Shown one piece after another: positions 918 through 64,000 of a stretch of 64,000 bases of DNA. The notes under the pieces were generated by a model. The model ran no database searches and was not told the DNA's origin. It was given only the letters and a program-made list of their open reading frames with translations. Within the stretch, counting starts at the first letter, position 1, and each line of letters opens with the position of its first letter. A program made the position numbers and the translations under genes. Origin of the DNA: a virus; the IMG/VR virus record IMGVR_UViG_3300030422_000020. One strand, given 5' to 3'.

Positions 918-1634
918 ATGTCTATGTACGAAGTGCCTTGTTTAGACCTTAACGGAGACACAGTTAATAAATTTTATCAATGGGACATAGACCAGAAGAT
1001 AGTCATTAATCTTGAAGGTTGTGATGAAAACTATCTCAAGAATGCACCAGAGGTACACTTTTGCAATACAAGTAGAACAGAAGCCTTAGTCGTTCGCTCT
1101 ACGGTGTCAAACAACGATACTATAACTGTTGATGTCCCAAATATTTTGTTACAAGAAGCATATCCTTTGCTTGTATATGTATATCTGACAGATGCCAACG
1201 ATTCGTCTTCGCAAAAGACAATTCTATATAGCGAGATTCCTGTTCGCAAACGTGCCATGCCAAGTGATTATCTATATGTCGAAAACATCACTCGCATTAC
1301 CGCCGAGATGATTAAGAAAGAAATTGAGCGAAGCACACAAGACGCCAGAACAAATGCTATCAACGCTATCACATCGACAAAAAATAATGACTGTAAAGCC
1401 GTTGATGATAAAAAGAATAGCTTTATTACAACTGGCGAAGGCCTTGTGCGTACTGCCACGGATATCAAAAACAATACTCAAACTACATATAATAACGCCG
1501 TCAGCGTTGCCAACAAAACACAGGCAACAATTGAAACCGATATGAATAACCTTATGTTAAAAAACGGCCTTAATTTAAAAACCGTAAACGATGGAAGCGG
1601 CAACGTCAATTTAGCTATTGTCATTAAGTCATAA
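918..1634 (+). CDS. hypothetical virion/tail-fibre-associated protein
   Basis: First ORF of the plus-strand operon. A strong RBS (AAGGAGG) lies 6 nt upstream. The C-terminus NDGSGNVNLAIVIKS is shared with the next ORF. Thr/Asn-rich composition is typical of fibre proteins. Confidence 0.35.
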   Translation: MSMYEVPCLDLNGDTVNKFYQWDIDQKIVINLEGCDENYLKNAPEVHFCNTSRTEALVVRSTVSNNDTITVDVPNILLQEAYPLLVYVYLTDANDSSSQKTILYSEIPVRKRAMPSDYLYVENITRITAEMIKKEIERSTQDARTNAINAITSTKNNDCKAVDDKKNSFITTGEGLVRTATDIKNNTQTTYNNAVSVANKTQATIETDMNNLMLKNGLNLKTVNDGSGNVNLAIVIKS

Positions 1635-1640
1635 TAGGAG

Positions 1641-2033
1641 GTGTGCTTATATATGTCAACTGCTTATCATGTTGAAACAATCGAGCGCATCACAGAACAA
1701 ATGTTGGTTGAAGAAGTTCTTGATGAAACAGAGAATATTAAAACAGATACTATAGAGCAAGTAGATAAAATAAAAGACGCTGCTATTGATTATATCACAA
1801 AACAACAGCGCGATCTAATTAATAAACTTGCTGAAACTGGCATAAGAAAAGAATTAAGACAAATAGATAGCGATACTACGGCAATCTATAATAATCTACA
1901 GAAAATTGTGCCGAACACTGATGCCAAGATAGAGAATACCATCAGAAATAAGATTGTAAGTAATGGATACTCTATTTCACTTAATAATGATGGTAGCGGA
2001 AATGTTACCGTTATCTTAGGGAGGATTGCTTAG
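1641..2033 (+). CDS. hypothetical protein sharing a C-terminal motif with the upstream ORF
   Basis: An RBS (TAGGAGG) lies upstream. The C-terminus NNDGSGNVTVILGRIA parallels the end of ORF 918-1634. Confidence 0.35.
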   Translation: MCLYMSTAYHVETIERITEQMLVEEVLDETENIKTDTIEQVDKIKDAAIDYITKQQRDLINKLAETGIRKELRQIDSDTTAIYNNLQKIVPNTDAKIENTIRNKIVSNGYSISLNNDGSGNVTVILGRIA

Positions 2034-2035
2034 AT

Positions 2036-2860
2036 ATGAATGGAAATAAAATAATGAAATCTCTTGGCGGTATGGAAGTATATGACGAAGCCGTCAGAAA
2101 ATATGTAAATGGAATTACTACTGCTGGGACTGGTGCTGCATATACCGCTACCGTGAAGGCGATTGATACTCTTGTCGTTGGCGCTAACTTTGTCATGGTG
2201 CCACATGTCACTAGTACTACTACCGCGCCAACTCTTAATGTGAACGGTCTTGGAGTTAAGAATATCAGGATGCGAATATCTACAGCTCCACAATCGACAA
2301 TTCAGCTTACTAATGCTGGTTTTCTTGTTGCAAATAAACCAGTAAGGCTCGTATATGACGGTCAATATTGGATTGTAGATGATATGGTTCAGCCTAATGC
2401 CAATGGCCTATATGGTACTGTTCCTGTGGCTTCTGGTGGCACTGGTGGCACAACTGTTGAAGAAGCCAGAAACAACTTGGGTCTTGGAAATACAAGCGGC
2501 GCTCTGCCTATTGCCAATGGCGGTACTGGTGCAACTAGCGCCACTGCCGCCAGAAAAGCTCTTGGTCTTGCAAGGGATGATACTGGCACTATTGATATTT
2601 CTGTCGGTGGCACTGGCGCTACCACTGCTGCTGATGCTAGAACGAAGCTTGGTATTACTCCTGCCAACATCGGAGCTGCTGCAAGTTCTCATAAGCATAG
2701 CGCTTCAGATATTACAAGTGGCGCTCTATCAATTGAGCATGGTGGTACTGGTGCAACAAATGCGAAAGCTGCCTTGAATAATCTCGGTATTAAATGGGGA
2801 AGTACGGCGGCTCCCGAGAAGGGTGACCCAAATACAATCTATATCCAGTTGCTTTCTTAG
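2036..2860 (+). CDS. tail fibre protein with tandem GGTGAT repeats
   Basis: Four copies of a ~22-aa repeat: PVASGGTGGTTVEEARNNLGLG, LPIANGGTGATSATAARKALGLA, IDISVGGTGATTAADARTKLGIT and SIEHGGTGATNAKAALNNLGIK. This is the phage tail-fibre repeat pattern. Confidence 0.7.
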   Translation: MNGNKIMKSLGGMEVYDEAVRKYVNGITTAGTGAAYTATVKAIDTLVVGANFVMVPHVTSTTTAPTLNVNGLGVKNIRMRISTAPQSTIQLTNAGFLVANKPVRLVYDGQYWIVDDMVQPNANGLYGTVPVASGGTGGTTVEEARNNLGLGNTSGALPIANGGTGATSATAARKALGLARDDTGTIDISVGGTGATTAADARTKLGITPANIGAAASSHKHSASDITSGALSIEHGGTGATNAKAALNNLGIKWGSTAAPEKGDPNTIYIQLLS

Positions 2861-2872
2861 GTGGTGATGTAG

Positions 2873-3718
2873 ATGGGTTTAACTAATCCTACTAAAAATG
2901 CTTACCCAAGTGCATATGACGTTGTTACTACAACATGTGGTGCTTCTGTAAAAAAAACTAGTGAAACAGTTGCAACTGTGACGATTAGTATTGATTGTCA
3001 TGGCACAGCTGGCTCAGGAGGTGGCCCTGCTCAATACGGCATAGTCGGACAGGTTGGCTATACATGTAATAATAAATCTAATTGGGCAGAGGTCGGCAGA
3101 GGTGTTGCGAATTATGGCGCAACAATTGTCAATGGCTCAAAATCATGGGATATCGAAAGAACAAATGTTGACCAATATTGTGAATGCTGGGCTAAAATTT
3201 GGGGTGAAACGGTTAACGGATATGGCGCGTGGGGTGCCAGCAACGGAGATGGCGCGAGAGTCGGTGTTACGATTCCAGCTCGCCCATATCATGCACATGG
3301 AAATCCAACTTTATCAACTATAAAAACAACTGCACACTACGGTGAAGTCTTAACGTTGTCTTTTGCCAAGAGTGGAACACAGGGCAATGCTAACTTTGAC
3401 CACTTTGAATTGTATCAGGGGGACACTCAGCTATATAAGGGTACTGATACAAGCTATGCAGTAACACCTTCTGATGTTACTGGTGCTAATGGCGGTACTG
3501 TAACATATACTCTTAAAGAAGTGCATGAATGGTATGGTGGATATAAAACAACCACTACTTCTATCTCTATTAAGGTACAGTCTGGTGTTGTCACTATATA
3601 CGATGAAAACAGGGTAAAGCACGTTGGTCTTGTCACAATGTATGATGAGCAGCGTGTCAAGCACTATGTATTGATTACCGCATATGACAAAGATAGTAAT
3701 GCTCATAATGTGGTATAA
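2873..3718 (+). CDS. putative tail fibre / receptor-binding protein
   Basis: In-operon ORF, Gly/Thr/Tyr-rich, sitting between two recognisable fibre proteins. Confidence 0.4.
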   Translation: MGLTNPTKNAYPSAYDVVTTTCGASVKKTSETVATVTISIDCHGTAGSGGGPAQYGIVGQVGYTCNNKSNWAEVGRGVANYGATIVNGSKSWDIERTNVDQYCECWAKIWGETVNGYGAWGASNGDGARVGVTIPARPYHAHGNPTLSTIKTTAHYGEVLTLSFAKSGTQGNANFDHFELYQGDTQLYKGTDTSYAVTPSDVTGANGGTVTYTLKEVHEWYGGYKTTTTSISIKVQSGVVTIYDENRVKHVGLVTMYDEQRVKHYVLITAYDKDSNAHNVV

Positions 3719-3787
3719 TATAGGCAACATAAGTTAGGCTGCGTTCTAAGGAGAACATTATGTCTGAAACATCAGAGCAATCTTTTA

Positions 3788-4573
3788 TTGGCACAATATC
3801 AACCAATGAGATTTGGAGGGGGTAATGATACAAGTCGGTGTCTAACTGACGATCTAAATGCTATGGACACAATTCATGAATCTTTGTCAAGCACTTATGC
3901 CGCGAAGAATCATACGCACTCTGGATATGCTGCTAAAAACCACACTCACAGTTATCTGCCTTTAAGCGGTGGCACACTCACAGGAAATGTCACAACAAGC
4001 AAAGACATTAATATGGGTGTAGAAGCTGCTATACAAGGCAAGACATCAGACGGAACTTTAAAGAATGTATTCGTCCCCGTGTCTGCTGCTGGCAATACGG
4101 CAATTGGATATGATAACTATCAAAAGTCTAACGGAACAACCAATCTATACGGTAACTCTGTTCGTATTTGGAGTAAGACTGGCGGTCTTACTGGTTCTAA
4201 TTATGGAGAAAATAAGGTGTTATGGAGCGGTGCTTTATACGTAAAAGAGGACGCTACTATTACCCTTTCTGGCAATGTGTCTGCACAACCTCATGGCATT
4301 TCTCTAATATTCAGTGCATATGACGTTGCCAATACATCTCCTGTTAATTCTAGCTGGAACTCTTTCTTTATTCCTAAATACGCCGTAGCAAATGATAACG
4401 GCGGTGGGTTCTCATTCATACTTGAGCGTGGTGGAAAGTTCTACAAGAAGTATCTTTATATTAATAATAATGAGATAAAGGGTAATGCTGTAAATAACAA
4501 CTCAGCCCTTTCTCTTCATGGTCAAACAGTTGACAACAGAAACATGGTTCTTCGTTACGTAATCGGTGTTTAA
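3788..4573 (+). CDS. tail fibre protein with tandem A-A-K-N-H-T-H-S motif (two consecutive copies)
   Basis: YAAKNHTHSGYAAKNHTHSYLPLSGGTLTGNV is the His-containing short repeat typical of phage long-tail-fibre shafts. It is the last ORF before a strong terminator. Confidence 0.6.
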   Translation: MAQYQPMRFGGGNDTSRCLTDDLNAMDTIHESLSSTYAAKNHTHSGYAAKNHTHSYLPLSGGTLTGNVTTSKDINMGVEAAIQGKTSDGTLKNVFVPVSAAGNTAIGYDNYQKSNGTTNLYGNSVRIWSKTGGLTGSNYGENKVLWSGALYVKEDATITLSGNVSAQPHGISLIFSAYDVANTSPVNSSWNSFFIPKYAVANDNGGGFSFILERGGKFYKKYLYINNNEIKGNAVNNNSALSLHGQTVDNRNMVLRYVIGV

Positions 4574-5196: not shown

Positions 5197-6393
5197 TTAT
5201 AATAGGAAGTCTTCTGCTTTTGCTACCTCTTCATTCAGTTTTGTCTCTAACAAGTGGGTATATTTCAAAGTGGTAGCATAACTAGTATGCCCCATGATTC
5301 TTTGTATAAACACTGGATCTAATTTCTTTTCAAAACACCTAGTAGCAAACGTATGTCTAAACGCATGTGGATAAATGTGTTCCATTTTTTCTGGCGCTCT
5401 GCCTTCTATTGCCGCATTATATTCTTCTTTTTCGTTGATGTTCTTCAATACCTTTTCAATGTTATGGGATAATGCATATCTTGTTACTGGCGAGCCAAGT
5501 GTTGTCGTAAAAACTAAATCGCCTAACTCTGGTCGCAATCTCCACCTACTTCCAAGCTTTGCTTTGTATTGGTCTTGTTTTACCTTCCAATCTTTAAATA
5601 GTTCTCCTACATTCCCGAAGAATGGAATAGTTCTGTAGCTATTGCTCGTCTTTGGTGTTGTGAGGTATTCCATTTTCTTACCGTCAACATAACCAATGCT
5701 CAGGCTTCTTTGTATTCTGATTGTTTTGTTTTGCCAGTTTATATCTTGCCATTGAAGACCGCTGAATTCGCCTATTCTCATGCCAGTAAGTAATAAGATT
5801 TGGTAAGCTTCATTATAATACTCATGTTCTATTTCATCTAAAAACATCTTCATTTCACGAGAACTCAAAACCCTACGTTCTTGAACAGCTTCATTCTCGT
5901 CTTTTATTGCTATATTAATACACGGATTAGACTTAATGATTTGATTCATAACCGCTATATCCAAACACTCTCTGAGTACGCCAAGTGCTTCTCTCAGCGT
6001 TCTTGCCTTGAATTTACTAAGTAATTCGTTTGTTGTATCTTGCATATTCATATGAGATATATTCTCTATCTTTTTATCTCCTATTGCAGCAATGTATGTG
6101 TTGGATACTTTTCTATGATATGCCCTTTTGGACACTTCCGACTTCAATGCTGGCTTTTTGTATTTTTCAAACCACTCTTCAAACCATTCAGACAGTGTAA
6201 GGTTTGGTCTAATATTCTTTTCGTCTCTTAGAATCTTAATTTTTTCTTCTTCAAAACGTTTCTTTAATGTTGGTAGATGCATATCATAAAGACACAGCTT
6301 AACACCGTTAATCATACACCGCGCTTCAAAACGTTTATCTTTTCGTTGACTGTATCCGCGCCCCAAGTCTTTGCCTTTAAGGTCTTTTCCCAT
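5197..6393 (-). CDS. int: tyrosine integrase/recombinase (398 aa)
   Basis: C-terminal catalytic motifs: LTGMRIGEFSGLQWQDI (box I), HAFRHTFATRC (H-x-x-R) and GHTSYATTLKYTHL (the catalytic Tyr region). Confidence 0.85.
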   Translation of the reverse strand: MGKDLKGKDLGRGYSQRKDKRFEARCMINGVKLCLYDMHLPTLKKRFEEEKIKILRDEKNIRPNLTLSEWFEEWFEKYKKPALKSEVSKRAYHRKVSNTYIAAIGDKKIENISHMNMQDTTNELLSKFKARTLREALGVLRECLDIAVMNQIIKSNPCINIAIKDENEAVQERRVLSSREMKMFLDEIEHEYYNEAYQILLLTGMRIGEFSGLQWQDINWQNKTIRIQRSLSIGYVDGKKMEYLTTPKTSNSYRTIPFFGNVGELFKDWKVKQDQYKAKLGSRWRLRPELGDLVFTTTLGSPVTRYALSHNIEKVLKNINEKEEYNAAIEGRAPEKMEHIYPHAFRHTFATRCFEKKLDPVFIQRIMGHTSYATTLKYTHLLETKLNEEVAKAEDFLL

Positions 6394-42659: not shown

Positions 42660-43034
42660 TTAATTATAAGACAGAAAATCAATAGCTTTCGTGCCGAGTC
42701 TTTCCACAGTCCTAGTGACATTCTGTCTTGTACAATCCATTGTATCACTAATCTCTTGATGTGTCATCCCATTTAATAGACATGATAGGATATATTTTTC
42801 ATTGTCGCTTAAACTTCTGACAAACTTACTCACCATCATGTTACCGAGAACTCGTTCATCAAAATCATAATCAATTAAAGCGTCTGGCAAATTGTCATCG
42901 AAATCTTCCAACGAACAATCACCAACATGATCGCACTCATAATCCGCATCTGATATCTCAATATCAAGACAACCATAAAAACCATAGTAGCGATCATCGC
43001 TCTCTACTGTCTGTTCCTTAAATGGCATTTCCAT
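42660..43034 (-). CDS. small HTH protein resembling sigma-70 region 4 / LuxR-type
   Basis: C-terminal LSDNEKYILSCLLNGMTHQEISDTMDCTRQNVTRTVERLGTKAIDFL. Confidence 0.45.
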   Translation of the reverse strand: MEMPFKEQTVESDDRYYGFYGCLDIEISDADYECDHVGDCSLEDFDDNLPDALIDYDFDERVLGNMMVSKFVRSLSDNEKYILSCLLNGMTHQEISDTMDCTRQNVTRTVERLGTKAIDFLSYN

Positions 43035-45731: not shown

Positions 45732-45807
45732 TGGAGCCGATGACAGGACTTGAACCTGCAACAGACTGATTACAAATCAGTTACTCTTCCAATTGAGTCA
45801 CATCGGC
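45732..45807 (-). tRNA. tRNA-Thr(UGU)
   Basis: GCCGATG tg ACTC aattggaa GAGT a ACTGA-TTTGTAA-TCAGT ctgtt GCAGG-TTCAAGT-CCTGT CATCGGC t CCA. Confidence 0.8.
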
Positions 45808-45826
45808 AATTGTACAATTGATTGTG

Positions 45827-45900
45827 TGCGCCATGTAGGATTCGAACCTACGGCCTACAGATTAGAAGTCTGTTACTCTATCCAGCTGAGTTAATGGCGC
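45827..45900 (-). tRNA. tRNA-Arg(UCU)
   Basis: GCGCCAT / ATGGCGC acceptor. Anticodon arm ACAGA-CTTCTAA-TCTGT. T arm GTAGG-TTCGAAT-CCTAC. Confidence 0.8.
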
Positions 45901-45951
45901 ACACAATCAATTGTTATATATAAAAGATATTATACCATATCTTGATATATC

Positions 45952-46036
45952 TGGTAGGGAAGAAGGGATTCGAACCCTCACGCTCTATGAGCAAGAGATT
46001 TTAAGTCTCCGATGTCTGCCATTCCATCACTTCCCC
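45952..46036 (-). tRNA. tRNA-Leu(UAA), type II
   Basis: Acceptor GGGGAAG/CTTCCCT + A + CCA. Anticodon arm GGAGA-CTTAAAA-TCTCT. Long variable arm. T arm GAGGG-TTCGAAT-CCCTT. Confidence 0.7.
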
Positions 46037-46042
46037 GAGTTT

Positions 46043-46117
46043 TGGTATCGGCTACGGGAATCGAACCCGTGTTTCCACCTTGAAAGGGTGATGTCCTAAC
46101 CGTTAGACGAAGCCGAC
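46043..46117 (-). tRNA. tRNA-Glu(UUC)
   Basis: Acceptor GTCGGCT/AGCCGAT + A + CCA. Anticodon arm TCACC-CTTTCAA-GGTGG. T arm ACGGG-TTCGATT-CCCGT. Confidence 0.75.
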
Positions 46118-46208
46118 ATTTGGTGCCGCATCTAGGTAACGCTCCTAGCCAGTCATAGACATTGGATTTACAGTCCAACCCTCGTCTTTAAAGGATTACT
46201 GCGGCAAT

Positions 46209-46285
46209 TGGTGGACACAGTAGGATTTGAACCTACGACCTTATGCGTGTAAAGCATCTGCGCTAACCAGCTGCGCCATGCGTCC
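46209..46285 (-). tRNA. tRNA-Val(UAC)
   Basis: Acceptor GGACGCA/TGTGTCC + A + CCA. D arm GCGC-agctggtta-GCGC. Anticodon loop TTTACAC. T arm GTAGG-TTCAAAT-CCTAC. Confidence 0.75.
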
Positions 46286-46286
46286 G

Positions 46287-46362
46287 TGGTGGAGTCGGTG
46301 AGAATCGAACCCACGACCTTGGGATTAAAAGTCCCCTGCTCTTCCGACTGAGCTACGACTCC
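46287..46362 (-). tRNA. tRNA-Lys(UUU)
   Basis: Acceptor GGAGTCG/CGACTCC + A + CCA. D arm GCTC-agtcggaa-GAGC. Anticodon loop CTTTTAA. T arm GTGGG-TTCGATT-CTCAC. Confidence 0.8.
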
Positions 46363-46366
46363 ATTA

Positions 46367-46441
46367 TGGTGGGGGATGAGTGAGTTGAACACTCTTCTAG
46401 AGCTTATAAGGCCCTTGCCCTAACCGTTGTGCGAATCCCCC
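46367..46441 (-). tRNA. tRNA-Ile(UAU) (AUA reader)
   Basis: Acceptor GGGGGAT/ATCCCCC + A + CCA. Anticodon arm AGGGC-CTTATAA-GCTCT. T arm GAGTG-TTCAACT-CACTC. One D-stem mismatch. Confidence 0.6.
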
Positions 46442-46472
46442 ATAGCCATTATAATAGACGGTAACGTTCCAT

Positions 46473-46553
46473 TGGCAGTGGCAAGATTTGAACTTGCATA
46501 CAGGAGCTACCTGTTTTGCCCATTAAAGCATAGCGTATACCGATTTCGCCACA
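46473..46553 (-). pseudogene. tRNA-like element (type II architecture) with a disrupted anticodon arm
   Basis: Good acceptor (GGCGGTG/CACTGCC), T arm GCAAG-TTCAAAT-CTTGC and variable-arm hairpin CAGG-TAGCT-CCTG. No 5-bp anticodon stem can be drawn in ATGCTTTAATGGGCAAAA. Confidence 0.3.
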
Positions 46554-46559
46554 CCGCCA

Positions 46560-47950
46560 AGTCACATTACCGTCTATGGAATATATACTTTTCAAGCATG
46601 GTCTATATGCTCTTATCGAGTACGATGACATCTCAAAAGAAGAGCAAATTGAACGACTACTCGACTCTGGCCTGCCCATTCTGTCGATGACAGATTCTGG
46701 AAATAAATCTGTTCATACCATACAACAACACGCAATGATAATATATACTCCATAGACGGTGGTAGCTTACTAAAGTCCTCACCAGCTACCAGAGGGGTCA
46801 CTTATTTTAAATACCGTCCGCGCTGGCAGACCTTCCAACGCTACCGATTTTACGCAACGGTGTACGCTTAACAGTCCGCTTCCTCCGTTAAGACAAGGGG
46901 TAACATTACGCCGTTACCATGCGCCCAAGACTTGTCAGGTAGCTATCTCCATCGTAAACCTTGGGACTGAGCGTTGACGGAAAATGAAAACGTAAGTCAA
47001 ATAACTCACACGCAAGGAACAACCGTTAAACCAAAACAGAAAGGAGTCAAAACATTTTCCGTCTACGGAATCGTACCGTACCATCTGCGTTAGTGAAATC
47101 AACCAAAAGACTAACACAGAATCGAACCTCGCTTTGTCGGTCAAGCAAACCAACGCGAAAGATTGTCTCAGGCCTTCGCCTTACCTTCATAAAACGTAGT
47201 GGTAATTCGGTAACATAGGAAATGGAGCTGAGACACAGGGAGCGACCCCATATCTTTCCATCCCGACTTTACGTCAATCTATGGCTGGATTGGCTACCAA
47301 CAACTTTCACCCACCATTCAGCATATTAATCTTCTAATACAATCCAACTTTGGGCTACTCGTACTCGCGTCTGGTCTTATAGCTGATTACCAGCATCAAT
47401 TGGACAACTATCTTATGGCACTCCAAGCGATTGGCATAGCTGCCACACTACCCTCTACTTGGTTCAATGGAATATATTCCATATCTATTGCGATAGCAAC
47501 CAGTTAGCGATACCATTTTCTTGCGTTTCATCACAGCGCCGTGTCTGCTCGGTTGAGATTTTCCACCTCTTCTACCAGAAGCCAGTTACCTACATCTGGC
47601 AAAGCCTACCTATGGGGTATCCTCCATAGTGGGACTCCTCGAACACGCCCATGACCACGTGGAGTCGTGAATACACATGGTTGAAACAATCCTTCGCGTT
47701 GATTTCTCAACGCTGATACTCTATGTAAATATCAAGGTGCAACTGGAAACTTCCGTTTCTCTGTGTCAGATATTATAGCATCTAACTTTATCAGTTGCAA
47801 GAACTTTTTTGAACTTTTTCCATCTTCTTTTCTCAAGGTGCTCATCAGATTGATCTGCGATTTGTCCGCGTCTCTTTCTGACATCAACTATATTACATGG
47901 TGCCTATATCTATGTCAACAACTTTTTAGAAAATTTTGAAAACTTTTTTC
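46560..47950. ncRNA. candidate large structured non-coding RNA region (~1.4 kb, ORF-free, GC-elevated) adjacent to the tRNA array
   Basis: No ORF over 72 aa on either strand. Composition is visibly more G+C-rich than the flanks. Long-range complementary segments are present (ACCGTCTATGGA 46569-46580 pairs with TCCATAGACGGT 46749-46760), along with tRNA-T-arm-like GAATCGAACC at 47120. Confidence 0.3.
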
Positions 47951-53883: not shown

Positions 53884-54246
53884 CTAATCCCAAGCGCGTG
53901 TACCGAACTCAACCTTATCCCAGCCACCCATTAAAAAGGCGTACATCCATCCATCAACGATAAAACACGCCTTCATCGGGTTGCTCTTATGGTCTTTCGC
54001 TTCATCCTCGTAATAAACATTTACGATATTCACGATACCCATACTTTGCAAATGCAACAGTGCCTTGCGTACATTGCTGCATAGCTTTTCATCGCCAATA
54101 GCTTTTGCAAGCTCGCTATACGTACCCTCGAAAACATCCATCTTCATAAGGTAATCCATGATACGTACTTCTTGTTTGGTCAACTCACGAAACTTACGCA
54201 TAAGGGTATAAGTCTCGTCATAGTTAAAGCCCATAGTATCAGCCAA
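53884..54246 (-). CDS. putative winged-helix DNA-binding protein (120 aa)
   Basis: TYSELAKAIGDEKLCSNVRKALLHLQSMGIV is HTH-like. Confidence 0.35.
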   Translation of the reverse strand: MADTMGFNYDETYTLMRKFRELTKQEVRIMDYLMKMDVFEGTYSELAKAIGDEKLCSNVRKALLHLQSMGIVNIVNVYYEDEAKDHKSNPMKACFIVDGWMYAFLMGGWDKVEFGTRAWD

Positions 54247-54862: not shown

Positions 54863-55606
54863 CTATCGTCTAACTGGCATAACCATTCCGAAACAGCTAC
54901 GCTCATTCTTATAATCGCTTGTCATAAACTCCATAGCGCGTCCCTCAAGACCCATCATAATCTGAATAGGCGTGCTTTTTCCGTATGCAAGTTTCACAGC
55001 AGCGCAAATATCAGCCATATAATCAGCGTTTACCCATGCGCTATATCCTTGATGAACGGTTCCGTCATTATCGCGTTGCGATTCAATGATGCGTTTATAG
55101 TCGATATACTCCCATCCAAACTTAGATAGATTATCAAACCCGACAACATCACGCAACCAATTATCAGACTTTTTCTGTTGATAGATATGCGCTGTTAAAT
55201 TATCTGCATCACCATCATAGTCAATAGTCACGCAACTATCAGTTGACTTTACATACTTCTTTACATCTTCAACATAGAGAAGGAAATCGGCGTTATGCTT
55301 TTCTGAAACATCGGCGGCATCGTAATTAACCTTATGCTCAAACTCGATCAGCTTATACCCATCACTGCCGACAATCGTATATTTGTCGTAGCGAACTTTG
55401 ATAAGCAGACACTTGCACCAGCTACGAATCTGGTCTTTATCATAGGCAAGACGAGCAGCTGCCAAAAGTTCTTTTGCATCCAAAGTAACGAGCATTGCAA
55501 TTCCTTCCGTCTGGTTTGCTCCATGGTTTAATAGTATCACGATTATGGCTACAACATATTTTCTCCATATAGTTTTCCACAAAAGAAAAGGGGAGCACAT
55601 ATGCAC
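54863..55606 (-). CDS. hypothetical protein (likely start at MLVTLDAKE ~55498)
   Basis: The ORF's first 36 codons look non-genuine. AGACGGAAGGAATTGCA precedes the internal ATG. Confidence 0.4.
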   Translation of the reverse strand: MHMCSPFLLWKTIWRKYVVAIIVILLNHGANQTEGIAMLVTLDAKELLAAARLAYDKDQIRSWCKCLLIKVRYDKYTIVGSDGYKLIEFEHKVNYDAADVSEKHNADFLLYVEDVKKYVKSTDSCVTIDYDGDADNLTAHIYQQKKSDNWLRDVVGFDNLSKFGWEYIDYKRIIESQRDNDGTVHQGYSAWVNADYMADICAAVKLAYGKSTPIQIMMGLEGRAMEFMTSDYKNERSCFGMVMPVRR

Positions 55607-55783: not shown

Positions 55784-56284
55784 CTAATTTTTAGCGCCGA
55801 TATACCCAAGGTTGACAAGCGTATTGTGCATACTACGGTAGCGATGCACATTTACGTAGCTCGACACAGCACCATAAGGACTAAGCCCCTTGTATTGATT
55901 TTTTTGAGGGAAATATTCCACCACGGTATCACGCTTGTACACGATAGTCTTTTTACGATTGATTGTCATACCATAGGGATGGAACACAAACGTGTTATTA
56001 TCTTCCGTGTGAACAATCACGTTAGTTCTCAACAAATCAAACACATCTTTAATACGATGCTCCGTAATATAGAGATACCCAGCGATACTATCATCCGTTG
56101 ACTTAAAGCGATACCACGTCTTTTGATTCTTCACAATAGGTACGTCGTACTCAACATCACCGATGAACCTGTATCCCTGCTTGCACTTTTTCCGAATCTC
56201 GTCAACATCAGAATAGTCAGCGACCCAAATGTTACCATCGACAAACATATGAAACCTTTCCGTCTCGTGGTTTTCTTTATCCAA
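55784..56284 (-). CDS. hypothetical protein (166 aa)
   Basis: ORF downstream of the triple operator. Confidence 0.4.
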   Translation of the reverse strand: MDKENHETERFHMFVDGNIWVADYSDVDEIRKKCKQGYRFIGDVEYDVPIVKNQKTWYRFKSTDDSIAGYLYITEHRIKDVFDLLRTNVIVHTEDNNTFVFHPYGMTINRKKTIVYKRDTVVEYFPQKNQYKGLSPYGAVSSYVNVHRYRSMHNTLVNLGYIGAKN

Positions 56285-56416
56285 AGTATATCACATGCGT
56301 TTAAAGGCATCGAAATCGACCCCTTTAAATCTAGCAATCCACTTTATCTCCATAATTATATATTCCATCTTGCTAGATATTCCACAAATGATAACAAAGT
56401 GTGTAGTATCTTTAGG

Positions 56417-56523
56417 TTGTCCACATTTTCCGTGGACAAGTTGCAAAACTCTCCTACTTGTCCACACTTTTCGTGGACAAGTATCATAAATAGGGTATAG
56501 TTGTCCACGTTTTTTGTGGAAAA
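56417..56523. promoter_or_regulatory. three tandem palindromic operators TTGTCCAC-N7-GTGGACAA (56417-56439, 56458-56480, 56501-56523)
   Basis: Sites 1 and 2 are perfect 8-bp inverted repeats with a 7-nt spacer. Site 3 has one degenerate half-site (GTGGAAAA). Centre-to-centre spacing is 41 and 43 bp. They lie upstream of gene 55784-56284. Confidence 0.55.
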
Positions 56524-56643
56524 ATGAACATTCCTAACAAAAGAGATATATACAAAATAGATAAAGATGCTTCGCAAGATTTTTTCCATATGATACAGAC
56601 AAGAAAATAAAAGGGCGAATAGATTATCCGCCCAGTCTTATTC

Positions 56644-56802: not shown

Positions 56803-57179
56803 GTTCTCACCTTTCGTCTGGTGCTTTACCTTGGTTATATAGTACCAAAGATTTTCCGTGTGTAATTGAGAATATCCGTCTCCACAGTTTCTCCATACAA
56901 TGATAGTCGGTCTGTATGGTGTAATTTTCCGCGTTGTCTTTGGTCGTGTATTTTGACGTTGTGTACCCCATTCTCAAAAGGGTCGTTTTATAGGCTTAGA
57001 GCGTCTTATTTGACCCTATTTGCCCCGATAAGCACTCGACCCTAGCAAGTACCCATAGAGAAAATATCGGGGGTAAATAGGCGCTATATCGCGTATAAAA
57101 TGCAATGCCATATATTCCAAAGACTAGACAAAAAAATAGGGACTAGATACCCAGTCCCTATAATGTTTACGTTGATTAA

Positions 57180-57761: not shown

Positions 57762-57886
57762 TAGACTATCCCTTCTGTTGGCGTTCTCTTTCCTTGTCTA
57801 TAGAATACCATAATATGTTGTCGTTCACATTATCTTCACATATTATATTGAATCAATAAAGACGGTATTGCTATAGCATTGATTGT

Positions 57887-58105
57887 TTACAAGTCAACAA
57901 TCAAATTGTGTTCTTTGATAAGCCGCCTTGCAATGCAAGGGTTAATATGCTTCTTTTTCGCCAGCACGATAGTACCGCTGCCGTCCTCGCGCTTATAGAT
58001 ACAGTGGTCGCCAGTACACCGCACATAGGCATACCCATTGCGCTTGACAATCTTAGTCATCTCTAGGTAGGTGTACTGCCGCATTTTCGCCATTGCTTTT
58101 CCCAA
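57887..58105 (-). CDS. HicA-family toxin-like protein (72 aa)
   Basis: YTYLEMTKIVKRNGYAYVRCTGDHCIYKREDGSGTIVLAKKKHINPCIARRLIKEHNL matches the HicA pattern (..GfelvrqkGSHhvy.hpdg...tvP.H...dl..g.lrkIlkq). Confidence 0.55.
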   Translation of the reverse strand: MGKAMAKMRQYTYLEMTKIVKRNGYAYVRCTGDHCIYKREDGSGTIVLAKKKHINPCIARRLIKEHNLIVDL

Positions 58106-58555: not shown

Positions 58556-58798
58556 TTAGCAAAAGTCATATAGGGTAAACATAAACGCCGCTGCTTCTCT
58601 GTCGCTAGAGATAACATCGCCACGATACTTCACGAACTCGCACACAAAATCTCTATGCTCCTTCAAAAAATCATCAAATGCGTCTGTAGCTTCTCGCTGT
58701 CCCGCCACTTCGCTACCGTTCCTGCTTGCATCATAGAGAAAATCGTAGTTATCATCAAACCTCTTGAGAAAATCGTCAATGTTAAAATTGAAAACCAT
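58556..58798 (-). CDS. hypothetical protein (80 aa)
   Basis: Bounded by a promoter motif and a terminator. Confidence 0.4.
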   Translation of the reverse strand: MVFNFNIDDFLKRFDDNYDFLYDASRNGSEVAGQREATDAFDDFLKEHRDFVCEFVKYRGDVISSDREAAAFMFTLYDFC

Positions 58799-58873
58799 TG
58801 TTCAGCCTTTCTTCTGGTTTCCTTTGTTGATTAAAGGATACCATAGTTTTGCCGTGTTCACGTTATCTTCACA

Positions 58874-58904
58874 TATATACACGCAAAAATAAAGCCCACC
58901 TTTT
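58874..58904 (-). terminator. rho-independent terminator
   Basis: AGCCCACC-ttttgc-GGTGGGCT with an A-run. Confidence 0.6.
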
Positions 58905-58919: not shown

Positions 58920-59168
58920 CTATCCCCTATAGTCTAACTTGACAACGCAACTTGAGTGACCATCACGTTGCACATATGCGTCAGGCTCAATAGCGCGTAC
59001 CTCACAATTGTCAAGCCACGGGCGCTTTTGCACCATATCAAACGGGTAGTCCTCAATCGTGAGCGGCGCTTTATCTATGGCATAGACAATTACGTTGACC
59101 ATGCCGCCCCAAACACTCCGCAAATCTTTGAATAACATTTGTACCACCTTTCGTTTGGTTTCTTTCAT
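58920..59168 (-). CDS. hypothetical protein (82 aa)
   Basis: Bounded by a promoter motif and a terminator. Copy 1 of the 110-bp element lies upstream. Confidence 0.4.
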   Translation of the reverse strand: MKETKRKVVQMLFKDLRSVWGGMVNVIVYAIDKAPLTIEDYPFDMVQKRPWLDNCEVRAIEPDAYVQRDGHSSCVVKLDYRG

Positions 59169-59228
59169 TGATTAAATAGTACCACGGTTTACTCGTCTCC
59201 ATAGTATCTTCACATAACTATATCTAGA

Positions 59229-59340
59229 CAAAAGTTTCTAGTAGCTAACTTTAAAATAGGCATAACTGTAGCTCAATAAATAAGTCATTATGAGTGGCGT
59301 ATGTTGGTCGCTTTGTCCTCCCGACTAGTTATATAATACC
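59229..59340. repeat. 110-bp conserved intergenic element, copy 1
   Basis: About 75% identical to 61057-61170 (aaaagtt..tagctaactttaaaa..aactgtag..taagtcat.at..gtgg..tatgtt.g...ctttgtcc.cccgact..tta.at). Confidence 0.5.
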
Positions 59341-59439
59341 ATAGTTTTAGGTTGTGAGATTGTGATTCCCAGATTCATAAGTTCTTCACAAATGAATACA
59401 CAAAAGAAAAGCGCCCACCTTTTCAGTGAGCGCCAGAAT

Positions 59440-59700: not shown

Positions 59701-60045
59701 TTTGTGCCGCCCTTCTCGCGTGCTTTTCTTGTTGGTTAGATAGTACCACGATTCAAGCGCCTACATACTTTCTTCATATATTGTTTTTTATGCTGTCCAG
59801 CTTTTGTTGCTTAGGTTGTCCGTTAAATGCGCTAGGGTAGTCCAGCCGCATTTGCCGCTACAAGCCCGCCAGATTCGATTTAAGGGCTGTTAAATGATTG
59901 TCGGGTATAAGTTATCCAGCCAGAAAATATAAGGGCTTAAAACGGCTTACAGTGCTTTATATTCTGTTGTCGATATTGATACTGAATTAGTAGCATTTAA
60001 AGACAAGAAAATAGGGGAACGTTACCGCTCCCCTTTGGTAGTCGC

Positions 60046-60645: not shown

Positions 60646-61011
60646 GCTCGGGGTGTCAAAGATTTTGCCGTTCTCATCACTAGGATAGTTGTCCTGCATT
60701 AGTTCCGTCCAGCTCGGTTCGCCCTCGTCACTGTAAGTATAATCTTCTTCCTCGTCCTCGTAATTGCTCACATGGACAAGTCCAGTGTTATCCTCGGTAA
60801 ACTCCATGTTCCAGTTATCGGCGATGGTGTTGAGCGTATCTCCAAGCTCCTTATCGTTGAGTTCATAGGCAAACTCGATAGCCAAGAGCTTGTATCCCAG
60901 CTCATTCACAAGTGCCGAAAACTTCCGCGTGTTCGTCTCGTTCATGGCTCGTCCTTTCGATTGGTGCCTTTCGTTAGTTATATATTGCCATAGTTCCACG
61001 CCAGATAGCAC
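60637..61011 (-). CDS. acidic hypothetical protein (124 aa)
   Basis: ORF. Copy 2 of the 110-bp element lies upstream. Confidence 0.4.
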   Translation of the reverse strand: MLSGVELWQYITNERHQSKGRAMNETNTRKFSALVNELGYKLLAIEFAYELNDKELGDTLNTIADNWNMEFTEDNTGLVHVSNYEDEEEDYTYSDEGEPSWTELMQDNYPSDENGKIFDTPSGF

Positions 61012-61056
61012 GACAATACATACCTACATATTTTCTCCATACAATCATACACAACT

Positions 61057-61170
61057 AAAAGTTCCACCTAGCTAACTTTAAAAAGTACAGAACTGTAGAG
61101 AACGTGTAAGTCATAATAGGTGGGCTATGTTCGGTGCCTTTGTCCCTCCGACTGATTACATATTATCATT
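61057..61170. repeat. 110-bp conserved intergenic element, copy 2
   Basis: Aligned by hand to 59229-59340. Confidence 0.5.
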
Positions 61171-61199
61171 TATCCGTGGCGTGTGCGATTCTATCCAGC

Positions 61200-61740
61200 A
61201 AAGCGCTATCTTTTCCGTAGCATTTTCCGCAAAAAAAAGAGCAGATATTTAATCCGCTCCATTTTTCCTAACCGAAAATGTTCCAAATATCCGCAGGGTA
61301 TCCAGTCGCCAAGCACACCAAAAAGCAGAAGAGTCTTACCGCAAAGATTCCAACAGCTCCACAAATAATTCCAGTTAGAACCTCCCTACCGTCTTTGGTA
61401 TTCGCCCAGTCTACGATTTTCCGAAACATTTTTCCGCCCTTCCAGTTGGTTTCGCGTACTACTCCATTTTAGCGCGTTTCGGTATTTTCCAGTCTGTAAT
61501 TTTCCAGTGTGTTAGTTTTCCACAGTTTCTCCATATCCCAGTCTAGTATTTATCCATGAAACTTCCATCAAATCTCCATAGCTTTTCCATCAGATGCACA
61601 TAAAATCTCCATCAAAGCTCCACATACTCTCCACATTTTCTCCATAACTATGGATCGCACACAAAATCTCCACATTTTCTCCACGAAAAAATTATAGAAT
61701 CTCCATAACTTTTTCCATAAAAAAAGGGGAACTCGGGATA
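61200..61740. repeat. dense array of more than 20 short TTTTCC(A/G) and (A/C)TCTCCA(T/C)A repeats
   Basis: Examples: cttttccgtag, cattttccgc, gattttccgaaac, tttttccgccc, tattttccagtc, aattttccagtg, gttttccacag, then aatctccatagcttttccatcag..aatctccatcaaagctccacatactctccacattttctccataac..aatctccacattttctccacg..aatctccataactttttccat. Confidence 0.6.
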
Positions 61741-61750
61741 GAGTTCCCCT
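61721..61750 (-). terminator. rho-independent terminator
   Basis: A6 followed by GGGGAACTC-gggata-GAGTTCCCC. Confidence 0.6.
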
Positions 61751-61758
61751 AATTCTAG

Positions 61759-62253
61759 TTAGTATTCGGGACTTTCCCAATACCAGTAGTGTATGGTCGC
61801 TTCGTTCATAATAGCACATGCAACATCGGTTGCCGAAAAATCGCTATTGTCGTCAATGTCGGTGTGCTCGTATATGTCTTTTGCGATATGCTCCACAACG
61901 TCAAGATATTTGCCGCTATCGTCCTCGATAGTTTCGTTATCGCGGACAAAATCGAGCATATGCCCATATGCAACGCCACTACCAGCGTTATACCAGTCGC
62001 GTTTAATGCACATGTTCATGATGCTTTTTGGTGACGTATTCCAGCAGTAGTGGCGCAGCGCGTTACGTGTATCGTTCATGATTGTACCCTTCTTTTTGGT
62101 TGGTTGGTTGGTTGGTGTGAGCGTGCATAGTTTCGCACGCTCACACCTTGCCGCTATCTGATATAGCGGTATCCCAGTTCGGGCGCGTGTACGGCAGGCG
62201 AAAAATCGCTCATACCGTTTGCGTACAGTGCGCATTGTATGGCAGTGTAGCAC
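61759..62253 (-). CDS. hypothetical protein (probable start at the internal MNDTRNALRH, ~62082)
   Basis: The N-terminal 57 codons of the track ORF are low-complexity and overlap the next gene. Confidence 0.4.
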   Translation of the reverse strand: MLHCHTMRTVRKRYERFFACRTRARTGIPLYQIAARCERAKLCTLTPTNQPTKKKGTIMNDTRNALRHYCWNTSPKSIMNMCIKRDWYNAGSGVAYGHMLDFVRDNETIEDDSGKYLDVVEHIAKDIYEHTDIDDNSDFSATDVACAIMNEATIHYWYWESPEY

Positions 62254-62417
62254 ATCTCACCGTACCCGTCCAAAACCGCCTTCCGCTCACGCACGAACTG
62301 ATAGCGGGTCTGGTTGGGCATATCGTTGCGCCAACGGGCTAGAATGCGCCCGTTGCGGCGATTAAGGCGGATGCAAACGCGCCCTTCACTGTCCAGTGTC
62401 TCATAGAACTTTACCAT
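62154..62417 (-). CDS. hypothetical protein (87 aa)
   Basis: ORF in the array. Confidence 0.35.
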   Translation of the reverse strand: MVKFYETLDSEGRVCIRLNRRNGRILARWRNDMPNQTRYQFVRERKAVLDGYGEMCYTAIQCALYANGMSDFSPAVHAPELGYRYIR

Positions 62418-62488
62418 AATCTTTCCCCTCCTGGCTGATTGCTATCTGATAGGTTTCAATTGTAGGCTATCCCCATAGCTGATAGTAG

Positions 62489-62869
62489 TTATGCAATAGG
62501 CGAGCAATAGTTATAGGTAGGCGTGATATATGCAAACGTGAGTTCATCGGTTGCGGGGTCGCGGAACATGAAACCACACGTAAACATAAATGTGTTGTAG
62601 CTGATGATACGGAAATCGTAGCCGTCATACTTTAGCATGAGGTTGCGGCAATACGCATATGCGCGCGCTTTCTTGTCGCTATAGCGTCCATACACGTCTA
62701 TGAGTTGCGTATCATCGCTACGAGTGTACCGCTGATACATATCATCGAGCTTGTGGGCGCGGACGCAGGTGAAATCTTGCACGAAATCGATAGTTAGGTT
62801 AGGCATGGTATCCCCTTTCGTTTTGGGGATAGCCCACGATTGAAACCTATCGGGCAGGACGCAACACAT
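62489..62869 (-). CDS. hypothetical protein (126 aa)
   Basis: ORF in the array. Confidence 0.4.
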   Translation of the reverse strand: MCCVLPDRFQSWAIPKTKGDTMPNLTIDFVQDFTCVRAHKLDDMYQRYTRSDDTQLIDVYGRYSDKKARAYAYCRNLMLKYDGYDFRIISYNTFMFTCGFMFRDPATDELTFAYITPTYNYCSPIA

Positions 62870-62895
62870 GCGGCGCTCACGCCTACGGATGGATA

Positions 62896-63396
62896 TTATA
62901 GGTTGGCGAGTTTGTCGAGGTCGAGCTTTACGTATTCGGTGAACCTATACGTATCGCCCTCCTTTACGACAACGTAGCGAATAATCGGCGTGGTGAACAT
63001 ATCGGGCTGATGGGTGGCATATGCCATGATAGGCATAAACCACGTGCCAGTGGCGCGGATAGACCACATATAGCCGCCTTTATCGTTCATGTGGTGCAAC
63101 ATGCTCTTATAGTCGAGTAGGACATCGCTCTGATAGTGGATACCGCCACACCGCTTAATGGTATCTGCAATGAAAATGTGAAGTTCATCGGCGGTAACGG
63201 TATAGTTCGTCATAGTGGTATCGGCAACGGTAACGGTGTGCTTAACGTACATAGTAAACTCCTTAAATAGTGGTTTTAGGTGGTTGACGTGTAGGCATAA
63301 GCGCCGTTTGTGTTGCGTCCTATATTTTAATATGCGGTTCTCAAGGTTCGAGATAGCTTCCCTATAGTCTTGCAATGGCTTATCAGTTTGACCCAC
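62896..63396 (-). CDS. hypothetical protein (166 aa)
   Basis: ORF in the array. Confidence 0.4.
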   Translation of the reverse strand: MGQTDKPLQDYREAISNLENRILKYRTQHKRRLCLHVNHLKPLFKEFTMYVKHTVTVADTTMTNYTVTADELHIFIADTIKRCGGIHYQSDVLLDYKSMLHHMNDKGGYMWSIRATGTWFMPIMAYATHQPDMFTTPIIRYVVVKEGDTYRFTEYVKLDLDKLANL

Positions 63397-63649
63397 ATCA
63401 CCACGCGCAATAGGTACACTACGCCGCCTATAGACGGCACACCCATATAGATAACAGGTGCCTATATGTGTTTGGGTTGCTAGCCCGCTGTTTGCTTTCG
63501 TCCTTTCGTTTGGGTTCCTGTTTGACGGCTCAAACTATACAGTGCATAAAGTGGCTTGTGCGGTAATACACATTCTCAACACATTTACAATAAAACAGCA
63601 GATAAACAGCTATGCCATAACGATGAAAACTACAATATGCTACTAGCGC

Positions 63650-64000
63650 ATAGCTATATTAAATGCATAAAACAGGTCGATATATACAAAAACGCGCATA
63701 CTTAAGGTTCAAGTTTAGGTTTAAGGTTTTGGGGTCGATATGCAAAAAAACGCATAAAACAGGGCTGTTTTAACGAAAATTTGCATAAATTGCAGTTTGT
63801 TTCTAGTATTAGGTTTGTTGAAAACTTTGTTGTACAACTTTTTTTGTTGAAAACTCTGTTGAAAAGTCATGGATCTGTTGAAAAGTTGTTGAAAACTCTG
63901 TTGAAAACTATTTAATGGTATTAGATATGTTGAAAACCTGTTGAAAACTCTGTTGAAAACTATTTAATGGTATTAGATATGTTGAAAACCTGTTGAAAAC
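63650..64000. repeat. repeat-rich non-coding region: GCATAAAACAGG and TCGATAT direct repeats, then tandem 52-bp units built from GTTGAAAAC 9-mers, running off the window edge
   Basis: ctgttgaaaac-tctgttgaaaac-tatttaatggtattagatat-gttgaaaac occurs twice consecutively (63889-64000). At least 10 GTTGAAAA(C/G) copies lie in 63820-64000. Confidence 0.6.

Follow-up and report, generated by a model that had tools for sequence, protein, structure and literature searches.

A phased palindromic array in a YonO-encoding, SPbeta-like phage is probably the distal copy of an inverted operator pair with a Rep-fold candidate binder

Three phased palindromes in the genome of a large phage are probably operators within a duplicated regulatory cassette. 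We propose that the array they form (array A) is the distal of two inverted copies and that its sites bind dimers of a lineage-specific phage protein, most probably the product of R, a gene that adjoins the other copy (copy B) in related phages; we place the probability of this reading, which draws on sequence comparison, at roughly 55%. The stretch analyzed here (the window; 64,000 nucleotides, numbered from its first base) is phage DNA throughout and, by its gene content and that of its relatives, is part of a large temperate SPbeta-like phage of ~130 kb encoding a YonO-type RNA polymerase, of an uncultured group that is probably gut-associated. A minus-strand arm is followed by many small orphan early genes, up to ~63.4 kb (Table 1).

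The pattern TTGTCCAC-N7-GTGGACAA starts at three positions of the window, 56417, 56458, and 56501, and is absent from the rest of it, with start-to-start spacings of 41 and 43 bp; the full sites within 56417-56523 read TTGTCCACATTTTCCGTGGACAA, TTGTCCACACTTTTCGTGGACAA, and TTGTCCACGTTTTTTGTGGAAAA. In a control of 100 shuffled sequences the mean number of pattern matches was 0.13 and three sites were found in 0 of 100, and each of the five TTGTCCAC 8-mers in the window lies inside array A. The pattern search and the shuffles thus confirm what the sequence-only reading of this DNA had described, namely, three sites, two of them perfect 8-bp inverted repeats, at 41- and 43-bp distances. The defect of the weak site 3 is kept in nearly all relatives. 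Within the 20-bp spacer that joins sites 3 and 2 there are -10-like hexamers in both directions, for which TGGACA of the flanking half-sites supplies the -35 (plus strand, TGGACA-16-TATAGT, 56474-56501; minus strand, TGGACA-16-GATACT, 56507-56480); these promoter-like matches within array A are weak, and the better-scoring direction varies among relatives. A nucleotide search of GenBank phages with the array region returned no match.

Table 1. Features of the window discussed in the text, in order of position where coordinates are given
Feature	Coordinates	Strand	Description
Tail-fibre genes	918-4573	+	
Tyrosine integrase	5197-6393		Tn1549/Tn916-type; matches Tn1549/Tn916-type Int and Xer catalytic regions
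Arm of ~58 kb		-	NrdD, helicase, DNA polymerase, DnaB, Sak4, RNA ligase, PNK-like gene, tRNAs, ROOL RNA
Eight tRNA genes	45732-46559	-	tRNA 46472-46559 has an anticodon unassignable by ARAGORN
ROOL RNA	47151-47704	-	Full-length (RF03087, 293 bits); adjoins the tRNA array
Sliding-clamp-like gene	54863-55606		Comes after gene X
Gene X	55784-56248	-	154-aa orphan; first gene downstream of array A
Predicted early-class promoter of gene X	56285-56353	-	ATGGAGATAAAGTGGA motif, 56353-56338; extended -10 TGATATACT, 56293-56285
Spurious ORF	56356-56589	-	Created by the repeats
Site 1, closest to gene X	56417-56439	none	TTGTCCAC-ATTTTCC-GTGGACAA; perfect palindrome, 8-bp arms, 7-nt spacer
Site 2	56458-56480	none	TTGTCCAC-ACTTTTC-GTGGACAA; perfect palindrome, 8-bp arms, 7-nt spacer
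20-bp spacer, site 3 to site 2	56481-56500	none	Remaining spacers are 18 bp
Site 3, weak and distal	56501-56523	none	TTGTCCAC-GTTTTTT-GTGGAAAA; one mismatch
Module	56527-56569	-	Direct repeats ATCTATTTTGT / ATCTCTTTTGT (11-12 bp; 56537-56548 and 56552-56563) plus TTAGGAATG; adjoins the weak site
Intrinsic terminator	56603-56633	-	GGGCGGATAATCTATTCGCCC plus T run; closes the upstream early genes just ahead of the cassette
HicA-toxin-like gene	57887-58105	-	PF07927, E 3e-7; no recognisable HicB antitoxin adjoining

Column identity was computed on an alignment of ten array A copies. Four of the six arms stood at 1.0: in site 1 the gene-proximal arm was invariant in the ten relatives and the other arm reached 0.81, and in site 2 both arms were at 1.0 around an internal spacer of 0.69. 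The internal spacers of sites 1 and 2 ranged from 0.59 to 0.69, the spacers between sites from 0.73 to 0.79, and the module stood at 0.96; as judged from this alignment, the arms are under purifying selection and the spacers drift. The CCAC and GTGG cores were invariant over 52 distinct sites, and the 7-nt internal spacer was an A-tract or a T-tract whose strand flips among genomes (AAAAAAC versus GTTTTTT), which argues that the constraint acts on the DNA duplex and not on one strand. Across 26 arrays, all 63 intervals between sites fell within 41-43 bp, which is four helical turns (41 bp, n = 37; 42 bp, n = 2; 43 bp, n = 24), and the 43-bp interval was always found at the weak-to-strong (site 3/2) position. 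The pattern of cores and spacers fits recognition of the duplex by a symmetric dimer, not coding sequence or an RNA hairpin, and it is almost certain that a sequence-specific protein binds the sites as a dimer. We regard it as exceedingly improbable that they are instead hairpins of a transcript or host DnaA boxes. The palindromes are able to fold as 8-bp stems, as the hairpin reading would have it, but the flips between A-tract and T-tract, the degenerate arms that break pairing without G-U wobble, and the retention of helical phase all count against an RNA element.

Gene X, downstream of the array, has no match in Pfam or PHROG; 15 homologues were found, each at least 81% identical. Its start is most likely the ATG at 56248 behind the RBS GGAAAGG and not the TTG at 56284, so that the intergenic region would extend from 56249 to 56643 (~395 bp); the array had been placed correctly upstream of gene 55784-56284, but in a region given as 350 bp. 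An ORF overlapping the array had been dismissed as spurious, and we agree: no family matches it, and each of the nine relatives examined has TAC in place of its ATG, along with stops or indels that interrupt the reading frame. A 20-aa mini-ORF within the gene X promoter is likewise only apparent and corresponds to the promoter motif. The promoter is of a class defined by an ATGGAG..GTGGA motif and the extended -10 TGATATACT, and its two-part element also occurs 5' of at least eight early genes at 56.8-61.1 kb. The extended -10 of gene X was kept in 12 of 12 relatives, including L049 and L052, in which the upstream sequence has been replaced, and the terminator on the far side of the array is also kept in relatives. 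The centers of the three sites lie ~150, 191, and 234 bp upstream of the best predicted gene X promoter, a distance at which simple occlusion is inapplicable.

Two repeat families were seen among the early genes. An intergenic element of ~80 nt recurs 5' of many of them (56808-56905, 57787-57843, 58793-58892, 59134-59233, 59326-59409, 59709-59786, and 60951-61060). It combines a pair of ATGGAG/ATGTGAAG-type motifs, set 11 bp from each other, with an extended -10 (TGGTAYTAT) and a conserved RBS-bearing leader, and looks like a phage-specific early promoter class. At 61490-61710 (minus strand), ~14 copies of (A/G)TGGAG, the same motif as in the early-promoter element, are arranged with an 11-bp period upstream of a small membrane-protein gene (61268-61429) and may serve to bind or titrate another factor.

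A search of IMG/VR, both for the palindrome and for homologues of gene X, supplied the relatives. At least 12 of these contigs, 70-131 kb long and drawn mostly from a single metagenome, carry the cassette twice and only twice, with the copies inverted relative to each other and separated by 7-11 kb. Array A precedes the gene X homologues (84-93% amino-acid identity), and a second array of 3-7 sites (array B) lies 7-11 kb further upstream. The perfect palindrome was confined to at most two cassette loci in every genome scanned; a palindrome found in many copies with no positional bias, which the sequence-only reading had named as grounds for giving up its proposal, was therefore not what the search returned, and in the window array A is the only occurrence. 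Compared in one orientation, arrays A and B are one ~200-bp cassette, which comprises in order the module (ATCTATTTTGT-ATAT-ATCTATTTTGT, then TAGGAATG), the weak site (TTTTCCAC..GTGGACAA), the 20-bp spacer and a strong site, an 18-bp spacer and another strong site, in some genomes extra 41-bp units, and last the downstream gene, which is gene X at copy A and gene R at copy B. Arrays range from three to seven sites because the 41-bp unit (a site plus an 18-bp spacer) has been duplicated exactly and in tandem. Duplicated units are found at L039 5224-5494 and L049 5759-5906; one genome has an array B of seven sites, and another an array A of four.

By synteny, copy B of the window's own phage would lie ~1.2 kb past base 64000. 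In the relative L057, which is 95% identical to the window over 61168-63903, copy B is visible directly, and R and array B are known here from relatives with 85-95% nucleotide identity to the window over their aligning parts. The 20-bp spacer of array B in these relatives is GGGTATAATGGTATAG, which yields TGGACA-16-TGnTATAGT in the direction of R (also read as TGGACA-16-TGGTATAGT). A degenerate fourth site, TTGTCCACGGAAAGTGTGGTATAAT, holds a perfect extended -10, TGGTATAAT, and this in turn precedes the RBS GGAGGTG and the TTG start of R.

Outside this phage group, a scan of 185,579 species genomes for the two-site pattern gave four unrelated matches, in DUF1016-like genes of high-GC MAGs, and no prophage relatives. 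The ATTGTCCAC-N7-GTGGACAAT pairs of unrelated MAGs (L053 5781-5842, L055 890-951, and L056 4564-4625; Bacteroidetes, Azoarcus, and Rhodocyclaceae) lie inside apparent DUF1016/YhcG-like coding sequences and have no relation to the phage arrays. A scan of IMG/VR for the palindrome of the L061 type, described below, gave single chance-like matches only. In the early region of one related phage (L014 8061-8159 and 9859-9931) there are also tandem 22-23-nt units, each with a hairpin, CAACACGCAGTGTTG.

R encodes 279 aa and lies immediately downstream of copy B. Next come a 966-aa YonO-type polymerase (PF05183; phrog_8308, E 1e-238), an HU-like protein, and YonJ_N, and, in further lineages, YonG and terminase, an order matching the yonO side of SPbeta. 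The late operon of SPbeta is transcribed by YonO from a start site upstream of yonK (PMC5467207). The module of the cassette was considered as a YonO promoter and ruled out, the motif being missing from the yonN-yonJ gap, which is the counterpart of the mapped SPbeta late promoter position (PMC5467207). In most lineages a small acidic protein with the conserved motif DFYPP..D.R...G.....GD is encoded 3' of R (L078 10881-11075, L080 10820-11026, and L062 1088-1291); the window family is without it and has a 200-nt ORF-free gap at that place. This ORF was rejected as a candidate binder, as it is not DNA-binding-like and is missing in the window family.

No match above threshold was found for R in Pfam, with Rep_3 not matched by sequence, and neither homologues among 50,697 GenBank phage records nor sequence relatives in the PDB were found. 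A profile search yielded an R family of 164 proteins, many on contigs of 100-150 kb, and 52 of 78 family members match winged-HTH families weakly. A 7-sequence alignment yielded a low-quality structural model (pLDDT 63), from which a fold search gave nothing useful; the AlphaFold model from a 78-sequence alignment reached a pLDDT of 92 and a pTM of 0.90, and its 14 best Foldseek matches in the PDB were RepE54 or Rep entries (E 3e-4 to 2e-3, probability 0.99-1.0). On this model, R is a tandem winged-helix (WH1-WH2) protein whose closest structures are the iteron-plasmid initiators pi and RepE.

Approximately ten further R lineages (35-53% identity) were examined, in which the synteny (divergent early genes, a 1.3-2.4-kb ORF-less region, the cassette, R, and the YonO gene) and the cassette are kept and the half-sites differ. 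The module, the weak site, the 20-bp spacer, and the strong site were kept in all lineages examined; the module, which is unique in the window (expected 0), was also found in L077-L080, L061, and L094-L099 and is thus retained across R lineages with differing palindromes. The half-sites read GCTTCCAC-N7 in L077, TTCCAC in L099, CCACCCAC-N7 in L094 and L095, CATGTAC, CATGCAC, or CATATAC-N7 (CATGYAC/CATATAC) in L063, L079, L078, and L062, GCWGGTAC-N7 in L096 and L098, and TGTCACG or TGTCAGG-N6 in L080 and L061, with an inner AC-N7-GT constant in the N7 classes. Lineages of one half-site class have recognition-helix residues in common (e.g., RxVSK with CATGYAC and (K/R)RVxQ with TGTCASG), a correlation that is confounded by phylogeny. 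L077 has another cassette, inverted and at a distance of 9.8 kb, and there too the half-site is the lineage's own; the two-cassette design and the specificity thus evolve together.

Co-variation of the half-sites at both loci points to a lineage-specific binder, not to host DnaA. TTGTCCACA, a half-site with its flanking base, does match the DnaA-box consensus TTATCCACA at 8 of 9 positions, but the ninth base is A in some sites and G in others, and the DnaA reading is refuted by the unrelated half-sites that related phages carry at the same position, since a conserved host DnaA would not allow half-sites to differ between lineages. In the lineages examined, R is the sole DNA-binding gene that is always at the cassette, and we infer that it is the most probable binder; any other lineage-specific phage protein would, however, co-vary with the sites equally. 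Two other genes of the window had been put forward as sources of the binder, and no link to the sites was found for either. The product of 53884-54246 has no family, no PDB relative, and no similarity to R. That of 42660-43034 (minus strand, 124 aa) has a sigma-70 region 4 / LuxR-type HTH (GerE, E 9e-6; PHROG sigma-factor family matches) and may be a phage sigma-like or anti-sigma-like regulator; R is the better candidate.

Under our preferred reading, one dimer of a lineage-specific phage protein, most probably R, would occupy each 23-bp palindrome, and the four-turn spacing would align all the dimers along the same side of the helix. With A-tracts in phase, the DNA would be curved, the dimers could bind cooperatively as a single nucleoprotein array, and the conserved weak outer site would grade its occupancy. 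In the window's own phage family, the sites of copy B overlap predicted core promoter elements of R, an arrangement that would mirror the auto-repression of repE by RepE. RepE autoregulates repE by binding, as a dimer, to inverted repeats at its promoter, and it loops oriS to incC (PMC13028717); by analogy, the Rep paradigm fits copy B well. Copy A, behind its terminator, would put the gene X-clamp operon under the same protein, and the two inverted arrays could pair by looping.

The direction of such control may be either positive or negative. The proximal strong site stands at approximately -61 of the predicted R promoter in four lineages and at -37 to -80 elsewhere, which rules out a fixed distance as a clue to sign, and this placement would suit activation as well as repression. 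Of the earlier comparison with cooperative repressor sites of the OR1-OR3 type, the dimer-binding sites are upheld by the conserved arms and the 41-43-bp phasing (63/63), whereas repression is one of two options, as a proximal site near -61 would serve activation equally in several lineages. R also seems to share a transcript with the late-gene polymerase, an arrangement not expected of a repressor that maintains lysogeny.

In a rather unlikely alternative, the sites are operators of a separate lysogeny master repressor, other than R, that silences the R-YonO and gene X operons in the prophage. The YonO operon has to stay silent in a lysogen, homologues of the YonO-type RdRP, HU, YonJ_N, and YonG stand in SPbeta gene order, the phage has an integrase, and a separate repressor would likewise co-vary with phage lineage. 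In SPbeta, MrpR binds an element in 10 promoter regions, including that of yonP upstream of yonO (PMC10516654). That element (SPBRE), however, is one 15-bp motif per promoter and not a phased palindrome array; no MrpR-like protein was found in the available part of the genome (about half), the window's recombinase matching the catalytic Tn1549/Tn916-type Int; and R alone among DNA-binding genes consistently adjoins the cassette. A more ambitious extension of our preferred reading, which we consider doubtful, would make R a Rep-fold master switch that bridges both arrays and couples replication initiation to expression of the YonO-type polymerase; the bridging loop of 7-11 kb would enclose the first early genes and a putative origin. 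To our knowledge, a developmental switch of bridged inverted arrays has been described for no phage.

A replication role is a live alternative or additional function, unlikely as it seems to us that the arrays are mainly replication elements, serving one or two origins as initiator sites or acting in handcuffing or as enhancers, with R as the initiator. Lambda O with its palindromic iterons, SPP1 with oriL/oriR, and R6K with its pi-mediated loops among alpha, beta, and gamma offer precedents. The predicted fold of R is Rep-initiator-like, site number ranges between 3 and 7 through 41-bp duplication, as in iteron arrays, and in every lineage array B borders the ORF-less region, which is AT-rich and repeat-laden. 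In the window family this region, ~2 kb from array B to the first early genes, holds at least 12 copies of the 11-mer GTTTTCAACAG (variants CTTTTCAACAG and GTTGTCAACAA, the latter one base off the extended half-site GTTGTCCACAA), with an 11-12-bp period at 63816-64000 of the window, where they run off the end, and again at L057 6900-7060; these repeats are candidate iterons or a candidate origin. Against a mainly replicative role, the ORF-less regions of five other lineages are without direct repeats resembling their own half-sites, R heads the RNA polymerase/structural arm and DnaB, DNA polymerase, and helicase lie 25-45 kb away, and array A has no adjoining AT-rich ORF-less region, being flanked by a terminator on one side and a promoter on the other.

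The 41-43-bp period with an internal inverted repeat, in arrays of up to seven units, also resembles F sopC and could be read as the partition centromere of a plasmid prophage, bound by a ParB-type protein. This reading is very unlikely, as no ParA/ParB Pfam match was present among the called genes of eight annotated loci around the arrays or R, the phage has a bona fide integrase, and the arrays are always located at specific operon promoters beside a winged-helix gene.

For the single-chain RNA polymerases of the SPbeta YonO type, control of expression is understood only through MrpR. For control of the polymerase operon, the cassette provides a cis element that can be tested and R a candidate trans factor, and the more than ten natural lineages are a ready set of protein/half-site specificity swaps. 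Should R prove to be the binder, a plasmid-initiator fold would be placed at a phage control region. Overall, the element is real and conserved and consists of phased palindromes, probably operators, with a Rep-fold candidate binder and an inverted-pair arrangement in YonO-encoding phages.

Parallels are found in several known systems. Like the OR and OL operators of lambda, bound by CI, the arrays have three dyad-symmetric sites of graded quality in fixed helical phasing, occur as two clusters per genome that could in principle loop, and overlap predicted promoter elements in the case of array B. They differ in the distance between site centers, which is 41-43 bp here and ~24 bp in lambda, in the 7-11 kb separation and inversion of the clusters, in a site number of 3-7, in a candidate binder that is winged-helix and Rep-like and is not divergently transcribed from the sites, and in the position of the array A sites, far upstream of the promoter mapped by homology. 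SPBRE, a single 15-bp motif at 10 promoters, is bound by SPbeta MrpR (YopR), which has a tyrosine-recombinase fold (PMC10516654). Both systems belong to large YonO-encoding temperate phages and use a phage-specific repeated promoter element, including upstream of the yonO operon; the present sites, unlike SPBRE, are 23-bp palindromes in phased arrays at only two loci, with no MrpR-like protein found. F sopC, bound by SopB, consists of tandem units of ~43 bp with an internal inverted repeat, as do these arrays, which differ in their promoter-proximal setting in an integrative phage with no partition genes seen nearby. In iteron plasmids (F RepE, pPS10 RepA, and R6K pi), the rep promoter has inverted-repeat operators to which the initiator binds as a dimer, and looping or handcuffing by the initiator connects clusters of repeats. 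R differs from the initiators of those plasmids in having no sequence-level Rep_3 match and in heading an RNA polymerase/structural operon in a ~130-kb phage, and the arrays differ in having 3-7 full palindromes at four-turn spacing versus one inverted repeat and direct iterons of 19-22 bp. The likenesses are that the candidate binder has a predicted tandem winged-helix fold with pi and RepE as its best matches, that inverted repeats lie directly upstream of its gene and overlap the predicted -10, and that repeat-rich, AT-rich DNA adjoins R, with a second cluster of sites kilobases away.
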